Counted from the stretch's first letter, positions 6,158 through 60,364 are shown. The stretch is 64,000 bases of DNA from Candidatus Saccharimonadota bacterium (GCA_028289135.1 JAQGGW010000005.1:139219-203218), one strand, 5' to 3'. The notes: generated by a model from the sequence alone, not told the origin. Numbers and translations are program-made.

Positions 6158-6973
6158 ATGTATTCTGGACTAACCCTAACTCGTTACTCTGGGCGGCTAT
6201 TTGGCGGCCATCAACATGTTGACCGTGTGGCACGCAGGCATTTGGCCGAGCTTATGCACCCAAAATCGGCCTTTCCAGGGATCCGTTCAATTTTGCATTT
6301 TGAAGGCAAAAACGGTCCGGACGGCATAAAGCGCAAAAGCCCCTCCCGCAATGAGCCGTGGCATTTTTTTGAACCGCTAAAAGGCGATACGACGGCATTT
6401 ATGAAACTCATAGAGCAACATTACAAGCAACTCGTTAAAGAGCTTAAGGCAAAGAACAAAGAACGGTCGGCATTTGAAGCCGCTTGGTTTGCACATACCA
6501 TTGTTGACGGCTTAACTCCGGCGCACCATTATCCGTACGAAGAAAAAATGGCTGAGCTTCGGGGAGGAGCCGCGAAAGATGACCGTACGACCGTTATGCA
6601 AAAGTGGATTTTTAAAGGAGATACCAAATCAAAAACACTGCAAAATGTGTTTAAAACCTGGGGTCCGCGCGGGCTGTATATTGCCCACGGTATGTTTGAG
6701 CTGGGGTTTGGCTTTATTATTAAACCTCTTCGCTTTCCAGATGCGCGCCCACGCCCAAGCGACATACTTTTGGCTAAAAAATTAGGTTATCACGAATATT
6801 ATTTGCGCCAGGCGCGTAAAGTTGCCCGCATGCAACTGTTTGATGCTTACATTAAAGATGGCTGGACGAGCAAGATCAGCCGTCAGGTACGCGAAGAGCT
6901 AGCGCCGACTATCGTAAAGACAATCACAATAATGTGGTACATAGCTGCCGAAGAAGCGGGAGTAGATAAGTGA
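6158..6973 (+). CDS. hypothetical protein (His-rich motif HTIVDGLTPAHH)
   Basis: ORF is open from GTG 6131. ATG 6158 lies 7 nt after TATACT (6145-6150), so the start is uncertain. No confident family call. Confidence 0.6.
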   Translation: MYSGLTLTRYSGRLFGGHQHVDRVARRHLAELMHPKSAFPGIRSILHFEGKNGPDGIKRKSPSRNEPWHFFEPLKGDTTAFMKLIEQHYKQLVKELKAKNKERSAFEAAWFAHTIVDGLTPAHHYPYEEKMAELRGGAAKDDRTTVMQKWIFKGDTKSKTLQNVFKTWGPRGLYIAHGMFELGFGFIIKPLRFPDARPRPSDILLAKKLGYHEYYLRQARKVARMQLFDAYIKDGWTSKISRQVREELAPTIVKTITIMWYIAAEEAGVDK

Positions 6974-7500
6974 GAATCATTGCTGGGTACTTAGGCGGTA
7001 GGATTTTTGATTCGCCAGAAACGGGCAATACACATCCGATGGGCGAAAAACCCCGGGGAGCGATCTTTAATGCCTTGGGCGATATTGAGGGCCTGACTGT
7101 TTTGGACGCCTATGCCGGCAGCGGAGCGCTAGGGTTTGAGGCAATTAGCCGCGGTGCAAAGTCGGTGGTGGCTGTGGAGCTGGATAAACAGGCCTATAAA
7201 ACAATTGTTGATAATATTTTTAAACTTGGTCTTGAGGATAAAGTCCATGCGGTGATCTCGACAATGCGCGCTTGGTCCAACAAAAACCAAAACCTAATGG
7301 TCGACATAGCCATCTGTGACCCGCCGTACGACGCAGTGCTGGCGCTTGAGATTGAGCGCCTCGTTAAGCATGTTAAGAAAAACGGCTTGCTGGTGCTTTC
7401 GTGGCCATCCAAGCTGGAAGCGCCGCCAATGCCAGGCTGCGAAATCTTAAATGAAAAAGAATACGCCGGTGCCAGGATTGTTTTTTATAGGAAGTCATAA
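6970..7500 (+). CDS. rsmD: 16S rRNA (guanine966-N2)-methyltransferase RsmD-like
   Basis: 176 aa. SAM-binding DAYAGSGALGFEAISRGA and catalytic DPPY. 4-nt overlap with the upstream ORF. Confidence 0.85.
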   Translation: MRIIAGYLGGRIFDSPETGNTHPMGEKPRGAIFNALGDIEGLTVLDAYAGSGALGFEAISRGAKSVVAVELDKQAYKTIVDNIFKLGLEDKVHAVISTMRAWSNKNQNLMVDIAICDPPYDAVLALEIERLVKHVKKNGLLVLSWPSKLEAPPMPGCEILNEKEYAGARIVFYRKS

Positions 7501-11122: not shown

Positions 11123-13057
11123 ATGGGCAGGCCAGTAATTCTTGGTAACAATGCGCTAACGGTTGGGCTTAACGAACACGGGCTGGTGAACGATTTTTAT
11201 TATCCTTATGTTGGCTTAGAGAACCTAACAACTGCGCGTAGCCTGCATCACTCGGTTGGCGTCTGGGTAGACGGTGTGTTTTCTTGGGTAGATGACGAAA
11301 AATGGGATAAAAGCGTGGACTTCGAGGACGATGCGCTCATTAGTACCATTAGCATGCACAGCAAAGCGCTTGAGCTGGAGCTGTATTTTAAAGATTTTGT
11401 AGATTCGAGGGCAAATATTTTTTGCCGCCAGATTTATGTAAAAAACATGGCTAAAAAACAAAGAGATGTGCGGCTGTTTATGCACCAGGTCTTCCAGATT
11501 TCGGATTCTGGACGTGCTGACACGGCGCTGTTTGAGCCCGAAGAACATTATTTGCTGGACTACAAGGGCCGCTGCGTGCTTCTGATTGGCGGCATGAACG
11601 GAGACGGCGAACTTTTTGACCAGTACGCTGTTGGCAATTACGGCATGGAAGGCAAAGAAGGCACTTTCCGCGATGCAGAAGACGGCGAGCTGTCTGGCAG
11701 CGTTGTAGAGCACAGCGGCGTGGACTCGGTGATGCGTTTCCAAAAAATATTAGCCGCTGGAGCCGAACTTAAGGTTGACTATTGGATAGTTGCATCAGAC
11801 ACCCAGCAAGAGGCCGAAAAAATCCATATTATGCTCAAAGAAACAGGGCTGGATGAGCGGATAACCAGAACCCGGGCTCACTGGCAGCAGTGGCTGCTAA
11901 AATCCATTGAAAAACGCAGTGTAGTGAGCGATGAGCTCCAGCCATGGCTTACAAAGTCATTGCTACTAATTAAAGTGCACATCGATAAGCGCGGCGGGAT
12001 TATCGCCAGCTGCGACTCGTCTATATACAATTACGGCCGCGATTATTACAGCTATGTCTGGCCGCGTGACGGCGCCTTTGCGCTCTGGCCGTTGATCCGC
12101 CTGGGCTATTCGGCCGACGCCAAGCGCTTTTTTAGCTTTTGCAAAGACATTATGCACCCCGACGGCTACATGCTGCACAAATACCAGCCTGACCGCGCCA
12201 TTGGCAGCACCTGGCACCCTCTGCTGCATGGCAGGCACAAAGAGCTGGCCATCCAGGAAGACGAAACGGCAGTTGTTCTGTTTATGCTGGGTGAATTTTT
12301 GGACTACTGTGTGGACGAAGAATTTGTGCACGAAATGTATGATTCTTTCATCCGCCCGGCCGCCAACTTTATGTCAAAGTTTATAGACAAGCAAACCAAC
12401 TTGCCGCACGCATCGTATGACCTCTGGGAAGAAAAGTTTGCGACCCATACCTACACCACGGCCGTTACCTACGGCGCACTCAAAGTGGCAGCGCGGATTG
12501 CGGAAATGTTTAGCGAACACAACGACGCCGAAAAGTGGACGGCCGCAGCCAAACGGATTGGTGACGAGTCAAAAACATTCTTTAACGAAGAGCGCGGTAA
12601 TTATATTAAGGGCTTCTTGCTTGGCGATAACGACGAACTTGTCCTCGACAACACTCTCGATGTTTCGAGCACTTACGGCATATACATGTTCAACTACCCG
12701 GTCACAAAGGATCATCTTACGCTTAGCATTGCATCAATCGAAAAAGAACTGCTTAACTCAGCGCCAATTGGCGGCGTGCCAAGGTATGAATATGACAACT
12801 ATTTTGCCTCTACCCCGCCGTACAAAGGCAACCCATGGTTTGTCACAACACTGTGGCTGGCCCAGCTTTATATGCGCACCGGCGAATACGAAAAGGCCAT
12901 GCAGCTGCTTAAGTGGAGCACCGATCGAGCGGCACCAAGCGGAGCGTTGGCCGAGCAGGTAAACCCAGAAAGCGGCTTTGCAACAGGGGTGTCGCCGCTT
13001 GTTTGGAGCCATGCCGAACTGGCCAACACAATACTGGACGTCTCAAAAACCAAGTAA
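11123..13057 (+). CDS. glycoside hydrolase family 15 (glucoamylase/glucodextranase-like)
   Basis: 644 aa. YSYVWPRDGAF and C-terminal (alpha/alpha)6-type WSHAE segment. Confidence 0.8.
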   Translation: MGRPVILGNNALTVGLNEHGLVNDFYYPYVGLENLTTARSLHHSVGVWVDGVFSWVDDEKWDKSVDFEDDALISTISMHSKALELELYFKDFVDSRANIFCRQIYVKNMAKKQRDVRLFMHQVFQISDSGRADTALFEPEEHYLLDYKGRCVLLIGGMNGDGELFDQYAVGNYGMEGKEGTFRDAEDGELSGSVVEHSGVDSVMRFQKILAAGAELKVDYWIVASDTQQEAEKIHIMLKETGLDERITRTRAHWQQWLLKSIEKRSVVSDELQPWLTKSLLLIKVHIDKRGGIIASCDSSIYNYGRDYYSYVWPRDGAFALWPLIRLGYSADAKRFFSFCKDIMHPDGYMLHKYQPDRAIGSTWHPLLHGRHKELAIQEDETAVVLFMLGEFLDYCVDEEFVHEMYDSFIRPAANFMSKFIDKQTNLPHASYDLWEEKFATHTYTTAVTYGALKVAARIAEMFSEHNDAEKWTAAAKRIGDESKTFFNEERGNYIKGFLLGDNDELVLDNTLDVSSTYGIYMFNYPVTKDHLTLSIASIEKELLNSAPIGGVPRYEYDNYFASTPPYKGNPWFVTTLWLAQLYMRTGEYEKAMQLLKWSTDRAAPSGALAEQVNPESGFATGVSPLVWSHAELANTILDVSKTK

Positions 13058-13091
13058 AAAATATATAAAACTAGCGCACTATTGACATAAG

Positions 13092-13220
13092 TGGTATAAT
13101 ATCACCGTAATGAAATACTTTTTATCTAACCAGAACCATCTGCATATATCGCCGGAGCTTGTCGGTTAGTTTTCTATTTCTCTTGAATTATTAAAACGCC
13201 GATGAATTTCGGCGTTTTTT
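13092..13220 (+). promoter_or_regulatory. leaderless leader-ORF attenuator upstream of the his genes (His codons)
   Basis: Extended -10 TGGTATAAT (13092-13100). ATG 13110 opens the 19-codon ORF MKYFLSNQNHLHISPELVG (to 13169). TCGGTTAGTTTT (13162-13173) mimics the terminator 3' arm. Terminator AAAACGCCGA/TCGGCGTTTT plus T-run at 13193-13220. Confidence 0.55.
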
Positions 13221-13282
13221 ATACCCCTTGAACAATTTTCATGGGGCATTTTGATTTGTTTTAAATAATTTAGGAGAATGAA

Positions 13283-13984
13283 ATGAGTAATTTAGAAATA
13301 GAGGCGGCCAGGGAGGCTGCCTTAGAGGCACGACAGGTGCTTTTCCCGAACAGATACGAAGAGCCATTAATTGAAGCTTTCCAAGACTTAACGGGAATTG
13401 AAGTGCCTACACCAAAACCCAGGCAGATAACCGTTATGTCCAAAGGGGTAACCTTTGTTTTTCCGAGAGGGAGGAACATTCCATGGCTTACGGCACTTGC
13501 CAACAGGCAGCAAAATGCACCACCAACAATTGGTATGACTGGCTCAGAATGGTACGGCGAATATGCCATGGGAAGTCTTGGTAACTATAACCGTCCGCGA
13601 GTCAATGGGTTCCAAATAAGAGACAAAAAAATGGGTGAGGTTGCTTTGTTTACCCCATCTAATGTAGATAGTGAAGAAACAGCTTTGCAGTTCGCTTACA
13701 ACAAAAAAATAAGTGTTGTAACACCTTACCCCAAGCTGCTGGCGGCAATAGCAGTAAGCGATGGGTGGAGAATATATCAGGCTGAAATTTTTGACGACAT
13801 GCAAGAAACTATCAGCGGCGGTGTTGAAGCCGTAGCCGAGATGTTTGGTTTGCCTGGTGTAGACCTTGTCTGCAAAGGCGATACGCTGGACGCAAATAAC
13901 TGTACCTATATCGGAGTATTACGTGATGTTTTTCCAACGCTTGTTGCGGCAGGACGCTCGAGGTCAAATCGTGAAGCAATATAA
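13283..13984 (+). CDS. hisG: ATP phosphoribosyltransferase-like protein (divergent HisG)
   Basis: 233 aa. RGRNIPWL...IGMTGSEWYGE and ISGGVEAVAEMFGLPGVDLVCKGDTLDANN resemble HisG blocks; the N-terminus is atypical. SD AGGAGA. Confidence 0.6.
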   Translation: MSNLEIEAAREAALEARQVLFPNRYEEPLIEAFQDLTGIEVPTPKPRQITVMSKGVTFVFPRGRNIPWLTALANRQQNAPPTIGMTGSEWYGEYAMGSLGNYNRPRVNGFQIRDKKMGEVALFTPSNVDSEETALQFAYNKKISVVTPYPKLLAAIAVSDGWRIYQAEIFDDMQETISGGVEAVAEMFGLPGVDLVCKGDTLDANNCTYIGVLRDVFPTLVAAGRSRSNREAI

Positions 13985-15263
13985 AAACCCCCGACCAAAG
14001 GACTGGGCAAGCATATGTATGCGACCAGTTTTTGAACGCGCAAGTCTTGAAGATACTATTTCAAAAATCTTCGAGGATGTTCGGATAAACGGTGACAAAG
14101 CATTAAAAAGTCTAACTAAAAAATATGACGGTATAGATTTAGCGAATGTAATGCTTAGTAAAGAAGAGATATCAGAATTGGCTAGTACGACGCCTCCGGA
14201 TCTGAAAATGGCAATCTTGACGGCGTACAAGAATATCTTGTCATTCCACAGGCTCCAGGTTCCGTTAAACTTAAAACCTTACGAAACATCTAGGGGTGTT
14301 GTCTGTTGGCAAGAAAACAAGGCGATAGAAAAAGTGGGGTTGTATATACCTGGTGGTAGCGCCCCATTGATTTCAACAGTGTTGATGCTTGGCATACCGG
14401 CTAGGCTCGCTGGCTGTTCAGAGGTGATTCTTTGCACCCCGCCCTCAGCAGATGGTTTGGTTAATCCAGCCATATGTCTTGCTGCTCAGCTAGTTGGCGT
14501 TTCAAAAATAATCCGCGTAGGCGGTGTCCAGGCAATTGCGGGGCTAACTTTTGGAACCGAAAGCGTGCCAGCCGTAAATAAAGTTTTTGGTCCTGGCAAC
14601 CAATATGTTTCGGCCGCTAAAGAATATGCGCGGCGGTATGGGGTTGGTTTAGATTTGCCGGCCGGGCCATCTGAGATTATGGTGATTGCCGATGAAACCG
14701 CAATTCCAGCTTTTGTTGCAGCCGATCTTTTGAGCCAAGCGGAGCACGGTCCGGATAGCCAGGTCGTGCTCGTGGCATCAAAAACCGAAGTAATAGATAA
14801 GGTGCAGCGTGAAATTTTAAAACAGTTAAAAGATTTACCTCGTCGCGAGATCGTAATAAAGGCTTTAGAAAATTCGTTTTGCGTCTTGTTTAAAGATGTA
14901 AAAACAGCAATGGACTTTGCGAATACTTACGCACCAGAGCACCTTATTTTGAGTGTAGCGAACCCTGAAAAAATTGCTGGGCAGGTTATAAACGCCGGTT
15001 CGGTATTTCTTGGAAACTTTACGCCCGAAAGTGCCGGCGACTATGCAAGCGGCACAAATCACACATTGCCCACGGGAGGCTGGACAAAAGCATACGGGAG
15101 CTTGGGAGTTGATGATTTTCTAAAAAAGATCAGTTTCCAAAATATAAGTAAGGACGGCCTGGAAGGACTTGCTTCAATCATTACGACAATAGCGGAGGCT
15201 GAAGGGCTTGGAGCTCACGCCCGTGCTGTAATAAAACGGCTAAATTTTAAGGAGAACATATGA
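13971..15263 (+). CDS. hisD: histidinol dehydrogenase
   Basis: QAEHGPDSQ, APEHL and GDYASGTNHTLPT motifs. The ORF is open from 13866; GTG 13971 (14-nt overlap with hisG) or ATG 14019 fit HisD N-termini better, so the start is uncertain. Confidence 0.88.
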   Translation: MKQYKNPRPKDWASICMRPVFERASLEDTISKIFEDVRINGDKALKSLTKKYDGIDLANVMLSKEEISELASTTPPDLKMAILTAYKNILSFHRLQVPLNLKPYETSRGVVCWQENKAIEKVGLYIPGGSAPLISTVLMLGIPARLAGCSEVILCTPPSADGLVNPAICLAAQLVGVSKIIRVGGVQAIAGLTFGTESVPAVNKVFGPGNQYVSAAKEYARRYGVGLDLPAGPSEIMVIADETAIPAFVAADLLSQAEHGPDSQVVLVASKTEVIDKVQREILKQLKDLPRREIVIKALENSFCVLFKDVKTAMDFANTYAPEHLILSVANPEKIAGQVINAGSVFLGNFTPESAGDYASGTNHTLPTGGWTKAYGSLGVDDFLKKISFQNISKDGLEGLASIITTIAEAEGLGAHARAVIKRLNFKENI

Positions 15264-15664
15264 GTGAATTAAGGCTACTGACAAATATTGACAAACAACT
15301 CTGTTTTGATAAAGCCCCATTTACCGAAGCAGGCCAAGGTATGGTTTCGGCGATTGCAATAGATAGGTTAATGCTGGCGATAGACGGGCTTGCAGCAGTA
15401 CGCATGCAGGCCTATATGACCAGAGAGGCCGTTGAAGCGACTATTCTTGACGGATTTGTAACTTGGTTTTCGCGGTCCAGACAAGATCTTTGGCAAAAAG
15501 GTGAAACTACCGGCAACGTGTTACGGGTACGTGATGCCTGCAAAGGCGGTCTATTTTTGGGACGTGCGATCTGGGTAGACTGTGACGGCGATTCGCTGCT
15601 TATTGACGTCGAACCCATGGGCCCAACCTGCCACACTGGCGCACGTTCTTGTTTTGAAATGTAA
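15260..15664 (+). CDS. hisI: phosphoribosyl-AMP cyclohydrolase (HisI domain only)
   Basis: 134 aa. DCDGDSLLIDVEPMGPTCHTGARSCF signature. 4-nt overlap with hisD. Confidence 0.85.
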   Translation: MSELRLLTNIDKQLCFDKAPFTEAGQGMVSAIAIDRLMLAIDGLAAVRMQAYMTREAVEATILDGFVTWFSRSRQDLWQKGETTGNVLRVRDACKGGLFLGRAIWVDCDGDSLLIDVEPMGPTCHTGARSCFEM

Positions 15665-15684: not shown

Positions 15685-16992
15685 ATGAGTCTTTCAACAC
15701 AACCGTACAAAGGTACCCGGGATTTTTATCCTGAGGACAAACGAATCCAGAAATATATGTTTAACAAATGGCGTGATGTCTTTGAGCTTTTTGGCTACGA
15801 AGAATACGACGCGCCGGTTTTGGAGCCGACTGAGCTCTATCTTGCCAAGGGCAATGAAGAGATCATCCAAGAGCAAACGTACACCTTTTTGGACCGCGGC
15901 GAGCGAAGTGTAACGCTGCGAACCGAAATGACGCCAAGTGTGAGCCGGTTGGTGGCGGCCAAGCGCCAAGAGCTGGCATATCCGCTGCGCTGGTACTCAA
16001 TACCAAACCTATGGCGTTATGAACGGCCGCAAAAAGGCCGATTGAGAGAGTTTTGGCAGCTTAATGTCGACATTTTTGGTGTTGCCGGAATTGAGGCCGA
16101 CCAAGAGATAATCCAGGTGGCCGATGCCACGGTACTTAGTTTTGGCGCCAAGCGCACAATGTATAGCATTAAGCTCAACAACCGGGCACTGATGAACTAT
16201 ATTAGCAATGATTTTTTAGGTCTTGATTCCGTTCAGTCCACTACGTTAATCCGCCTTATTGACCGCATGAATAAAATGAAGGCGCCCGAGTTTTGGGGTC
16301 TGGTGGAAGCAATATTTAGCCCCTCGCAGCGCGATGCAAAACTAACAGACAAACTAAAAAAGATTTTGAACGCTAAAACAATGAAAGCCCTTCCAAAAGA
16401 AGTTGCGGCATCTGAGCCGGCCCAAAAACTTGGTAAATTAATTGAGCTTCTGCACCTCCAAGGCATTAGTAATGCCGTTTACGACCCAACATTGATGCGC
16501 GGGTTTGACTATTACACGGACATTGTTTTTGAAGTGTTTGACACAGACCCAGAAAATAACCGCTCGATGTTTGGCGGCGGACGTTATGACGGCCTAATCG
16601 GCCAGTTTGGCGTAGAACCTGTTCCGTCGGTCGGTTTTGCTGCGGGCGATGTAACATTCCAGAACTTTTTAGAATCACATGAGCTTTTGCCAGTTCTTGC
16701 TAGCGAAACAGATGTGTACGTCATTCTGATTGGTGATGTGTACGAGCGTGCCATTAAACCAATACAAGAGCTCCGTGAAATGGGCGTGAAAGTTGCCGTG
16801 GATTTGACGGGCCGTAAAATGGATAAACAGATTAAAACTGCATTAAAAAAGAACATTCCGTATGCATTGTTTATAGGCGAGGAGGAGCTTAAAAAAGGCC
16901 AGTTCAAGCTTAAAGAACTTGCTAAGAACAGCGAAGAATCTTTGGCATTGGCTCGGATCGTGACCGTGGTAAAAGATTACCGCCGCAAGTAA
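15685..16992 (+). CDS. hisS: histidyl-tRNA synthetase
   Basis: 435 aa. GTRDFYP, class II motif 2 (RYERPQKGRLREFWQ), motif 3 (GGGRYDGL). SD GGAGAA. Confidence 0.92.
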   Translation: MSLSTQPYKGTRDFYPEDKRIQKYMFNKWRDVFELFGYEEYDAPVLEPTELYLAKGNEEIIQEQTYTFLDRGERSVTLRTEMTPSVSRLVAAKRQELAYPLRWYSIPNLWRYERPQKGRLREFWQLNVDIFGVAGIEADQEIIQVADATVLSFGAKRTMYSIKLNNRALMNYISNDFLGLDSVQSTTLIRLIDRMNKMKAPEFWGLVEAIFSPSQRDAKLTDKLKKILNAKTMKALPKEVAASEPAQKLGKLIELLHLQGISNAVYDPTLMRGFDYYTDIVFEVFDTDPENNRSMFGGGRYDGLIGQFGVEPVPSVGFAAGDVTFQNFLESHELLPVLASETDVYVILIGDVYERAIKPIQELREMGVKVAVDLTGRKMDKQIKTALKKNIPYALFIGEEELKKGQFKLKELAKNSEESLALARIVTVVKDYRRK

Positions 16993-36628: not shown

Positions 36629-36687
36629 TTAAATTGCTTGACAGTAGGAATATAATTAAAGCATAAGTATTAATAAGGAACACAAAA

Positions 36688-56832: not shown

Positions 56833-57078
56833 CTAGTGAATCCAGGTTTCTTGTTCGGGAAGTACTTCGTCAGCTTTTAGCTGGTTTAGTCGTCCAAGTA
56901 TAGCGTTTCTCCCAATCCGTTGTGTGTGCAGGTTCGCCCTTTCAGCGGCTAATGCAACTTCGTCTATGGGCTTGTTAGCCAACACTTCTTTTACTGCCTC
57001 ACCGCCTAAATGCACGGCCATATTGGCAGCATAAAGCTCTCGTCCTACTTCTTCTATTTTCGGGTTTCCGTTATTCAT
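56833..57078 (-). CDS. hypothetical protein (81 aa)
   Basis: SD AGGAGA 7 nt upstream. Its translation-initiation region is near-identical to that of hisG. Confidence 0.5.
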   Translation of the reverse strand: MNNGNPKIEEVGRELYAANMAVHLGGEAVKEVLANKPIDEVALAAERANLHTQRIGRNAILGRLNQLKADEVLPEQETWIH

Positions 57079-57101
57079 TTCATTTCTCCTAAATTATTTA
57101 A

Positions 57102-57267
57102 AATAAAAAAGCCTCCTGGTTGGAGGCTTAAGGTTCGTTAGTTTGTGCTAAATTACAATGTAAAGTAAGCAATGCCTCCGTGGGTCGAAGACGTAAAGAA
57201 ATTGTTTAACTGGATTGAGACTGTTCTCATAGCGAGAAATAATAACATATACATTTTATAATAGCAA
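57102..57267 (-). promoter_or_regulatory. leaderless leader-ORF attenuator (Phe-Phe codons), minus strand
   Basis: Minus strand: TTGCTA (57267-57262), 17 nt, TATTAT (57244-57239). ATG at 57230 opens the 25-codon ORF MRTVSIQLNNFFTSSTHGGIAYFTL (to 57153). GGAGGC (57179-57174) competes with the terminator AAGCCTCC-AACCA-GGAGGCTT plus T-run (57129-57105). Confidence 0.5.
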
Positions 57268-57595: not shown

Positions 57596-57739
57596 AATAC
57601 GGAGTGTATATTAGACAAGTTATGAGAATTATTGCAAACGTATCATATTGGTTTACCGACACTGCTGTGGCGGTTTCTTCTGTGCGATAAAGCATAAATC
57701 AAAAGATAAGAAAACCAACCGCCACCAAGGCGGTTTTTT
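57584..57739 (+). promoter_or_regulatory. leaderless leader-ORF attenuator W1 (Trp codon)
   Basis: TTGACA (57584-57589), 17 nt, TATATT (57607-57612). ATG 57622 opens the 22-codon ORF MRIIANVSYWFTDTAVAVSSVR. X GTGGCGGTT (57667-57675), Y AACCGCCAC (57717-57725), Z GGCGGTT plus T-run (to 57739). Confidence 0.65.
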
Positions 57740-57760
57740 AATGCATAATAAGGAGTTAGT

Positions 57761-58236: not shown

Positions 58237-58350
58237 ATGAAAACAACAGTTCAACAATTCATCTGGCGTTACCACCTAAAATGTTGGCGGTACTGATCGA
58301 ATTGCTCAGATTTTTTTAGAATTACCGCCAACATGGGCGGTTTTTAATTT
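58237..58350 (+). promoter_or_regulatory. leader-ORF attenuator W2 (Trp codons) upstream of the trpS operon
   Basis: 19-codon ORF MKTTVQQFIWRYHLKCWRY (58237-58296). X TGTTGGCGGTA (58282-58292) pairs over 11 bp with Y TACCGCCAACA (58323-58333). Terminator ACCGCC-AACATG-GGCGGT plus TTTTTAATTTTT (58324-58350). Confidence 0.65.
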
Positions 58351-59335: not shown

Positions 59336-60364
59336 ATGAGTAAAGAAGTAATCTTGACTGGCATTAGGGCGAATAATGACCTGACTTTGGGCAACTATTT
59401 TGGGGCGATTTTGCCTATTGTGGACATGGCTAAGAAGCGGGCAAATGAATATCAAATTAACTTGTTTGTACCTGATTTGCATAGTTTTACGACGCCAATC
59501 GATCATAGCCAGCTGCAAGAACAAATCATGCACAATCTGCGTTTGTTTGTTGCGGCTGGCTTACCGCTTAACCACCCAGATGTGCACATTTATAGGCAGA
59601 GTTATATTCCTGCTCATAGTGAGCTTGCATGGATTCTGGATTGCTTTACCGGTTTTGGAGAAATGAGTCGGATGATTGAATTTAAAGATAAATCGGCAAA
59701 ACTAGGTGAAGAACGGGTTGGCGTGGGGCTTTTTAATTACCCTGTTCTGATGGCGGCCGACATACTGCTCTACAATGCAACATATATACCTGTCGGAGAC
59801 GACCAAACCCAGCATCTTGAGTTTACCCGGGACATCGCAGAGCGCTTAAATACACGTTTTGGCGACCTATTTTCCGTGCCGTATCAGGTAAAAAAACAGC
59901 ATGAATTCTTTGGCAACGACCAAGGCTTGCGCATTAAGGACCTTCAAGATCCAACCAAAAAGATGAGCAAAAGTGACGAAACTGGCAAAGGTGTCATTTT
60001 CTTAGGTGACACTCCAGAGGTGGCTGCCAAAAAGATTATGAGCGCTACAACGGACTCCCTGGGAGTAATTAAGTTTGACTGGGCAGAACAACCCGGCATA
60101 ACCAATCTGTTGCAACTTCTTGCGCTGGCTACAGAACGCCCTCAAACAGAGGTAAATAAGCAATGGGAAGGCAAAACAGCATATGGTGAGCTCAAGAAAG
60201 CCGTTGCTGAAGCCATTACGGGCTTTTTGCAGGGGTTGCAGGGGCAGTTGGTTCTTGTGGACGATTCTGCGCTGCTGGCCAAGCTCGGCGCATCTGAAAA
60301 AGCTATGAATGAAGTTGCTAACAAAACACTCTATAAAGTCCAAAAAGCCGTCGGACTGCGCTAG
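59336..60364 (+). CDS. trpS: tryptophanyl-tRNA synthetase
   Basis: 342 aa. HIGH-region variant TLGNYFGA, KMSKS present (KKMSKSD). Confidence 0.93.
   Translation: MSKEVILTGIRANNDLTLGNYFGAILPIVDMAKKRANEYQINLFVPDLHSFTTPIDHSQLQEQIMHNLRLFVAAGLPLNHPDVHIYRQSYIPAHSELAWILDCFTGFGEMSRMIEFKDKSAKLGEERVGVGLFNYPVLMAADILLYNATYIPVGDDQTQHLEFTRDIAERLNTRFGDLFSVPYQVKKQHEFFGNDQGLRIKDLQDPTKKMSKSDETGKGVIFLGDTPEVAAKKIMSATTDSLGVIKFDWAEQPGITNLLQLLALATERPQTEVNKQWEGKTAYGELKKAVAEAITGFLQGLQGQLVLVDDSALLAKLGASEKAMNEVANKTLYKVQKAVGLR

Follow-up and report, generated by a model that had tools for sequence, protein, structure and literature searches.

In the hisL attenuator of Enterobacteria (Rfam RF00514), a short ORF containing His codons is followed by a pause-type 1:2 hairpin and by mutually exclusive antiterminator and terminator structures, and the charging of tRNA-His thereby controls the histidine genes. 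The usual regulator of hisS in Firmicutes is the T-box riboswitch (RF00230). Saccharibacteria and other CPR bacteria have tiny genomes and few known regulators, and to our knowledge no cis-regulatory RNAs of the attenuator type have been described in them. His leader peptides have been predicted upstream of a hisS paralogue and of hisZ in Bacillus, according to the description of these leaders by Naville & Gautheret 2010 (PMC2965389). In Deinococcus deserti, leaderless leader peptides with mapped start sites precede aminoacyl-tRNA synthetase and amino-acid genes, and in the case of cysS as few as two regulatory codons are present (de Groot et al. 2014, PMC4007540); a histidine example was not encountered in the main text of that paper. 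In mycobacteria, leaderless polycysteine short ORFs are described in a preprint as attenuating the downstream genes of their operons (bioRxiv 10.1101/834739).

The stretch of DNA analysed here, referred to as the window, comprises 64,000 nucleotides (64 kb) and its source genome belongs to Candidatus Saccharibacteria (TM7). The initial annotation had read the region upstream of its histidine genes as a leader-peptide attenuator with His codons, and this reading was strongly supported by the comparison with relatives. The region 13082-13282 is very probably a ribosome-mediated transcription attenuator, which senses charged tRNA-His and serves the hisG-like, hisD, hisI and hisS genes; its response to histidine is what we infer from these comparisons. 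The tig gene, which follows hisS, is probably also under the control of the leader.

With hisL the leader shares the short ORF with His codons, the 1:2-type hairpin, the mutually exclusive folds, the proposed tRNA-His logic and the histidine genes. It differs from hisL in that no sequence or covariance-model match exists between them, in the number of His codons (2-3 here, 7 consecutive ones in hisL), in being probably leaderless and without a Shine-Dalgarno (SD) sequence, in having hisS as the main target, and in the additional pairing of segment 1 with segment 4, by which the antiterminated form becomes one long hairpin. A peptide with His codons and a premature terminator before a hisS-family gene, outside Proteobacteria, is the feature shared with the predicted Bacillus leaders (PMC2965389); as described there, those leaders belong to another phylum, no sequence similarity is reported and they are not called leaderless, and it is by this description that the present leader is set apart. 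The Deinococcus leaders (PMC4007540) are alike in that the peptide begins at the transcription start, as is predicted here, two codons suffice and tRNA synthetases are among the targets, but they belong to another phylum and their start sites were mapped, whereas ours were deduced from the −10 spacing. The likeness to the mycobacterial ORFs (bioRxiv 10.1101/834739) lies in an ORF, here probably leaderless, that is rich in a single amino acid and has an attenuator role; the amino acid there is cysteine and the phylum is a different one. As in the T-box, uncharged tRNA-His would lead to read-through into hisS, and the genomic position is the same; the T-box, however, binds tRNA directly and without translation, and no T-box match was present in the window.

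Searches with Rfam, at the gathering threshold for the window and at E values up to 10 for 12950-13400, returned neither His_leader RF00514 nor T-box RF00230, and terminator hairpins were matched at chance level. No literature on such leaders in Saccharibacteria or Patescibacteria was found. Since relatives of the idea are known, and none was found for these groups, the leader is a new family with a known mechanism. It is also a good candidate for a new Rfam family, since its compact sequence of about 110 nt is highly conserved and shows much covariation.

The elements of the leader, all on the plus strand, were checked by reading 12700-13500, and the positions initially annotated for the −10 element, the ATG, the ORF, the His codons, the decoy and the terminator were all confirmed. 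The extended −10 promoter element TGGTATAAT (13092-13100) is preceded by a TTGACA box (13082-13087) which lies 7 nt before the −10 hexamer. The leader ORF MKYFLSNQNHLHISPELVG (13110-13169) starts with the ATG at 13110 and has 19 codons followed by the stop codon TAG (13167-13169). The regulatory codons CAT-CTG-CAT (His10, Leu11 and His12, 13137-13145, columns 25-27 and 31-33 of alignment A2) include the two His codons of this copy, CAT at 13137-13139 and CAT at 13143-13145, and the second of them starts 19 nt before TCGGTTAGTTTT (13162-13173). Segment A, CGCCGGAGC (13150-13158, codons S-P-E-L), has two roles, as 5′ strand in the outer antiterminator helix and as 5′ arm in the A:B hairpin. Segment B, TTGTCGGT followed by TA and then GTTTT (13159-13173), holds the stop codon, corresponds to the initially annotated decoy of the terminator 3′ arm and pairs with AAAACGCCGATGA (13193-13205). 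The small A:B hairpin (GCCGG-AGCTTG-TCGGT, 13151-13166), followed by UUAGUUUU, was called terminator-like by a simple terminator scan. The intrinsic terminator itself (AAAACGCCGA, loop TGAATT, TCGGCGTTTT and TT; 13193-13220, arms 13193-13202 and 13209-13220) was missed by the scan, because the A/T-extended stem swallows the T run. Between segment B and the terminator lies the pyrimidine-rich spacer TTTCTCTTGAATTATT (13177-13192). The terminator stands as initially annotated, with its distance to the next start codon (13283) corrected from 60 to 62 nt. An nhmmer search with the family profile detected the leader at E = 9e-22 and no second copy in the 64-kb window; together with its recurrence upstream of hisS in about 40 other loci, this places the leader beyond chance.

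The upstream neighbour of the leader is a GH15-type glycoside hydrolase gene (11123-13057). Downstream, on the plus strand, the Shine-Dalgarno sequence AGGAG (13272-13276) precedes the first structural gene, an ORF of 233 amino acids (13283-13984). It is followed by hisD for histidinol dehydrogenase (14019-15263, TIGR00069 492 bits, Pfam 521 bits), whose start codon is probably the ATG at 14019, by hisI with the phosphoribosyl-AMP cyclohydrolase (PRA-CH) domain only (15260-15664, PF01502 91 bits), by hisS for histidine--tRNA ligase (15685-16992, TIGR00442 357 bits), and then by tig and clpP. The hisA, hisF, hisH, hisB and hisC genes are not near the hisG-like, hisD and hisI genes, and the pathway appears incomplete within the window.

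The initial naming of hisD, hisI and hisS proved solid, while in the case of hisG the direct evidence was weak and the name was reached through homologues. Pfam HisG (PF01634) matched the 233-residue ORF with 16.5 bits (E = 0.0085), under the gathering threshold of 25.5 bits, and the NCBIfam search gave no match; direct naming by Pfam, NCBIfam or PDB was thus weak or failed, whereas a homology chain and a family profile succeeded. In tblastn the protein was linked to a homologue in locus L015 (E = 1e-13), and this in turn to the HisG of L025 (E = 2e-16); the proteins of L025, L019 and L017 score 41-71 bits on PF01634. The family profile A3 recovered canonical HisG with E = 1e-19 to 1e-13, and the protein can be aligned with other HisG proteins of Saccharibacteria. 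The hisG assignment relies on this chain, by which the ORF is a divergent HisG relative and a putative ATP phosphoribosyltransferase. Among 5.8 billion proteins, the 233-residue sequence was found unchanged in a hypothetical protein from a Candidatus Saccharibacteria MAG, and its relatives formed only two further clusters.

Elsewhere in the window, two short ORFs with Trp codons (57624-57740 and 58238-58350, the "Trp pair") each precede a hairpin with a T run. Downstream of them lie small ORFs of no assigned function in a low-GC stretch, not trp genes; trpS is at 59336-60364. The string TTTTAAATAATTTAGGAGAA(A)TGAAATG, spanning the ribosome-binding site and the start codon, stands before the HisG-like gene (13259-13285), and the same string occurs on the minus strand at about 57060-57130, directly after the hairpin AAGCCTCCAACCAGGAGGCTTTTT.

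The TTGACA at 13082-13087 was considered as a −35 box and rejected as a normal one, since it is only 7 nt from the −10 hexamer. The same arrangement, TTGAC(A/T), 7 nt and TATAAT, was found in at least 10 other promoters of His leaders, and in 705 kb of Saccharibacteria loci the histogram of spacings between the two motifs had its peak at 7 nt (10 cases), compared with 9 cases at 17-18 nt. TTGAC(A/T) located 7 nt before a (TG-extended) TATAAT was observed in the window at 13082-13100 and at 36638-36656, at L029:8098 and in many His-leader promoters; in these promoters the box lies at about −25. A long gene with a leaderless transcript is driven by the promoter at L029:8098.

In 22 of the 28 leaders with a recognisable hexamer the −10 box ends 6-8 nt before the ATG of the leader ORF (9 nt in the window). 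No SD-like sequence was found before this ATG in any of 32 leaders. An in-frame ATG giving 17-19 codons was present in 32 of 34 leaders and the remaining two are fused to a TrpR-like gene. Since the SD sequence is lacking in 32 leaders and the distance between the −10 box and the ATG is short, the leader peptide is taken to be leaderless: the transcript would probably begin at or nearly at the start codon, as judged from the −10 spacing.

In the relative L001 the leader precedes a HisG-like gene whose protein is 35% identical to the 233-residue protein of the window. It consists of TGTTAGAAT, 7 nt, the ATG of MNFVQTSQHHLHILPERVG and a terminator, and from the His codons to the stop codon it is nearly identical in nucleotides to the leader of the window. 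One genome per species was scanned with the pattern GCCGGAGNNNGTCGGTTAGTTT, which represents the part of the leader with the hairpin and the stop codon and does not contain the His codons. Out of 22 matches 19 were leaders of the Saccharibacteria type; those in L009 (Zixibacteria), L014 (Desulfobaccia) and L023 (Leclercia) were rejected as chance matches without ORF or terminator context. All of the 19 complete leaders found by the pattern had 2-3 in-frame His codons (CAT/CAC) just upstream of the motif, arranged as HHxH or HxH, and the N-terminus of their ORF was variable with codons that are not conserved. A GC-rich terminator with a T run was present in 21 of 21 genome leaders.

As an independent sample, 80 metagenomic hisS loci were chosen by the similarity of the HisS protein, and a sequence profile together with a heuristic search detected the leader in about 17 of them. 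The 14 variants aligned from this sample all carried 2-3 His codons in the same place, and the variants with altered A, B or terminator sequences all had at least two (HHxH, HxH, HxxH). In alignment A2, C31 and A32 were invariant and the third position of the His codon was only T or C. Loss of the His codons in orthologous leaders had been named initially as an observation that would count against the attenuator; the counts of 19/19 and 14/14 are in its favour, and the promoter, the ORF with His codons, the decoy with the stop codon, the terminator and the His-related genes downstream were all found conserved in relatives. The leader is not a universal feature of hisS in Saccharibacteria: about 63 of the 80 sampled loci are without it, most of these having a promoter alone, 10-25 nt before hisS, and it is therefore lineage-restricted.

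Divergent forms of the leader were also observed. At L045:4885-4936 the leader MLQRSNHHSHLTSKRIG has different pairing segments (GTCGAAGCG / CGCTTCGAC), and in this predicted leader the design is retained at a sequence divergence beyond the range of the profile. In L015 (about 6840-7170, minus orientation) and L076:3100-3488 the His-codon leader forms the C-terminal tail of a TrpR-like ORF (YerC/YecD, PF01371; proteins P0057 and P0058), and this ORF closely precedes HisG-type or other inserted genes. Fusions of TrpR with HisG, about 403 residues long, exist elsewhere, which suggests that YerC-like proteins may be functionally linked to histidine genes.

Both alternative structures of the leader RNA are conserved by covariation. 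Across 34 leaders the terminator helix was paired to 97.4%, and 6 of its 9 pairs showed compensatory changes. Segment A has the family form CGCCGGAGCnn (codons S-P-E-x) and is complementary to the loop and the 3′ arm of the terminator (T3); in L020, for example, GCCGGAGCTTGTC pairs with GACAAGCTCCGGC. This A:T3 helix was paired to 90.5% in the 34 sequences and 6 of 9 pairs had changed on both sides. The helix of segment B with the terminator 5′ arm (B:T5) and the A:B hairpin were paired to 91% and 92%, respectively, in A2, with little variation, and the apparent conservation of A and B is inflated, since 20 of the 34 sequences of this alignment had been selected by the A/B motif. In A:T3 and B:T5 together 7 pairs had changed on both sides. 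None of 500 shuffles reached the observed values of the pairing measures, and the slid-partner controls were all exceeded. Three-way covariation of A, T5 and T3 was seen in L092 (CGCTCCG), L076 (CGCCAG) and L049, where the terminator arms change and segment A changes too.

In the window the antiterminated fold, 13150-13173 with 13193-13214, has a calculated energy of −23.9 kcal/mol, compared with −10.2 kcal/mol for the terminator alone; in constrained folds segment A pairs with 13207-13214. The inner helix, TTGTCGGT..GTTTT with AAAAC-GCCGATGA, reaches −11.3 kcal/mol before the 3′ arm is transcribed, and it is the minimum-energy structure once the 5′ arm and the loop have been transcribed, unless a ribosome covers segment B and the stop codon. 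The pairing of a decoy with the terminator 5′ arm, proposed in the initial annotation, can thus be regarded as real, since it is the best fold whenever B is free of the ribosome, and it turned out to be part of a larger antiterminator. The description of the antiterminator as weak did not hold, given the energy of the inner B:T5 helix and the second, covarying A:T3 helix.

In order to follow the effect of ribosome position, the RNA was folded in a purely thermodynamic model with the ribosome-covered part masked. The terminator had a probability of 0.00 in 20 of 20 leaders when the first His codon was placed in the A site and of 1.00 in 20 of 20 when the ribosome stood at the stop codon; for the last His codon in the A site the values were intermediate. 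In the control with segment A shuffled the mean probability of the terminator was 0.41-0.99. In the leader of the window, with the edge of the ribosome 11-12 nt past the last His codon, the equilibrium fold was the terminator (P = 0.74). The naked RNA at equilibrium preferred the antiterminator in most leaders, thus termination would depend either on a ribosome closely coupled to the polymerase or on the A:B hairpin as a kinetic trap.

A further pairing was calculated between the spacer 13177-13192 and the ribosome-binding (SD) region 13264-13279 of the HisG-like gene, with a duplex energy of −16.2 kcal/mol (z = −4.3); it is part of the minimum-energy fold. As a family-wide feature this pairing was rejected (mean z = −0.8, 6 of 31 significant, some of the gene starts being over-extended), and it is strong in the window, L033 and L097. 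In the window it could act as an extra translational layer.

According to the model suggested, transcription would start a few bases past TGGTATAAT, and the 19-codon ORF would be translated from a leaderless, or nearly leaderless, 5′ end. When charged His-tRNA is plentiful, the ribosome would reach the TAG codon and cover both A and B, so that the terminator at 13193-13220 could fold and transcription would end. When it is scarce, the ribosome would stall at His codon 10 or 12, leaving B free and A wholly or partly free. The free B (TTGTCGGT..GTTTT) would then capture the emerging 5′ arm of the terminator and A (CGCCGGAG) its 3′ arm; the resulting long hairpin (13150-13173 with 13193-13214) would exclude the terminator, and RNA polymerase would read into the his genes and hisS. 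In the terms used for classical attenuators, A:B would correspond to the 1:2 hairpin, a candidate pause hairpin and anti-antiterminator followed by UUAGUUU, B:T5 to the 2:3 antiterminator and T5:T3 to the 3:4 terminator, and the extra 1:4 pairing A:T3 would lock the antiterminated state.

The ribosome-mediated attenuator was weighed against other readings of the same elements. A promoter and a strong terminator bound a unit of about 110 nt (about 13107-13220), which could be a stand-alone or dual-function sRNA acting in trans, with a constitutive terminator and another promoter for his and hisS. Trans-acting sRNAs derived from attenuators exist elsewhere, as rnTrpL (PMC6614838), and there are weak, sub-threshold Rfam matches to terminator-bearing sRNAs (rseX 24.5 bits, cut-off 50). 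These matches are, however, due to the terminator alone, with E near 1. In every case the element has the same orientation as hisS and directly precedes the hisS operon, no convincing promoter was found in 13221-13282, and a covarying antiterminator would be without purpose if the terminator were constitutive. We regard this explanation as very unlikely.

Terminator and antiterminator folds resemble the expression platforms of riboswitches, and in Gram-positive lineages T-boxes are the usual regulators of aminoacyl-tRNA synthetases. Another reading is a sensor made of RNA alone, either T-box-like or a riboswitch that recognises tRNA-His or histidine, in which a tRNA anticodon or a ligand, not the ribosome, would read the CAU triplets. 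But no T-box or other Rfam family was identified at E values up to 10, the element of about 110 nt has no specifier-loop or T-box sequence, and the start codon, the reading frame, the length of the ORF and the stop codon are conserved, with CAT and CAC exchanged as synonymous codons, none of which such a sensor would require. This explanation was given still less credence than the sRNA.

The ORF could also encode a micro-protein with a function of its own, such as metal binding by a His-rich peptide, so that its conservation would reflect the function of the peptide. The C-terminal motif H(H)xH-x-(S/L)-P-E-x-V-G is indeed conserved, and in L015 and L076 it is the tail of a real protein. However, the conserved C-terminal codons are invariant at third positions too and covary with the terminator, which indicates selection at the RNA level; the codon after GAG varies (L, R, V, P, F or H) and follows the sequence of the terminator loop, and the N-terminus is free to vary. 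This is scarcely credible as the explanation, and lower again in our ranking. That the arrangement is accidental, the ORF being meaningless and the hairpin, which lies 135 nt past the upstream stop codon and, being flanked by an A tract and a T tract, could work bidirectionally, just terminating the GH15 gene (11123-13057), has a negligible probability and is refuted by the comparative data, since the whole module is found again before hisS in about 40 loci whose upstream genes are unrelated.

Returning to the attenuator, its target can be recognised from the gene orders. In 18 of 21 loci hisS was found downstream of the leader, directly or after 1-4 genes, and in the remaining three the sequence is cut short; the leader thus belongs primarily to hisS. 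In the closest relatives of the HisS protein of the window (L026:340-981 and L027:1394-2032, 85-86% identical) the leader stands directly before hisS, thus the hisG-like, hisD and hisI genes of the window appear as a cassette inserted behind the leader. By this comparison of gene orders the conserved target is hisS, and the his genes of the window represent one insert among several alternatives. Others between the leader and hisS are HisG (L017, 71 bits), a HisG-PRA-PH fusion, LD-carboxypeptidase, VanX-like dipeptidase, and phosphoribosyltransferase-like, LOG/SLOG, PfkB, nucleoside hydrolase, HAD and AstE/AspA-like genes. Among the genes behind the leader in L004, L033 and L044, where the first gene is concerned, and in L049, L097 and L113 are those for DapF-fold proteins like CntK/HisR and for VanX/M15-type dipeptidases; the best matches of the DapF-fold inserts are the histidine racemases CntK/HisR, under the curated cut-offs. 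It is possible that the CntK/HisR-like and VanX/M15-type inserts have histidine-salvage functions in an auxotrophic symbiont.

The hisG-like gene of the window is unsplit. In several relatives the hisG between the His leader and hisS is split at one point, which was first seen in L011, L019 and L025; altogether eight independent cases were collected (L011, L019, L025/L110, L106/L107, L108, L109, L111/L112 and L113). In all eight an invariant in-frame CTT CAY is present, with a stop codon in the zero frame 1-14 codons further on; in the +1 frame HisG continues gaplessly when compared with unsplit homologues and a solved HisG structure, and a +1 ribosomal frameshift would be needed to read the gene in full. 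In five of the eight, GGAGG lies exactly 3 nt upstream of CTT. The layout is the same as that of the +1 frameshift site of prfB (RF2), with the difference that a His codon replaces the UGA stop codon. Internal re-initiation at the SD-like GGAGG was judged unlikely, since, in all cases with CAC as the His codon, the +1 frame begins with the codon ACG or ACT, and transcriptional slippage likewise, since there is no homopolymer run at the split. We lean slightly towards the view that the leader may be one layer of a two-layer histidine sensing, in which a "hungry" His codon would trigger the +1 shift in hisG, and full-length ATP phosphoribosyltransferase would be made only when His-tRNA is scarce. 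According to a 2016 review no natural amino-acid sensor based on hungry-codon frameshifting is known (PMC5009743), and no description of this candidate CTT CAY frameshift in hisG was found in the literature searched. If true, the frameshift site in the hisG of the relatives could open a new class of amino-acid sensors.

For the biology of these organisms the leader means that Saccharibacteria would tune histidyl-tRNA synthetase by classical ribosome-coupled attenuation, from a predicted leaderless transcript. The genes located between the leader and hisS mark a "histidine regulon", and they hint at how auxotrophic symbionts may obtain histidine.
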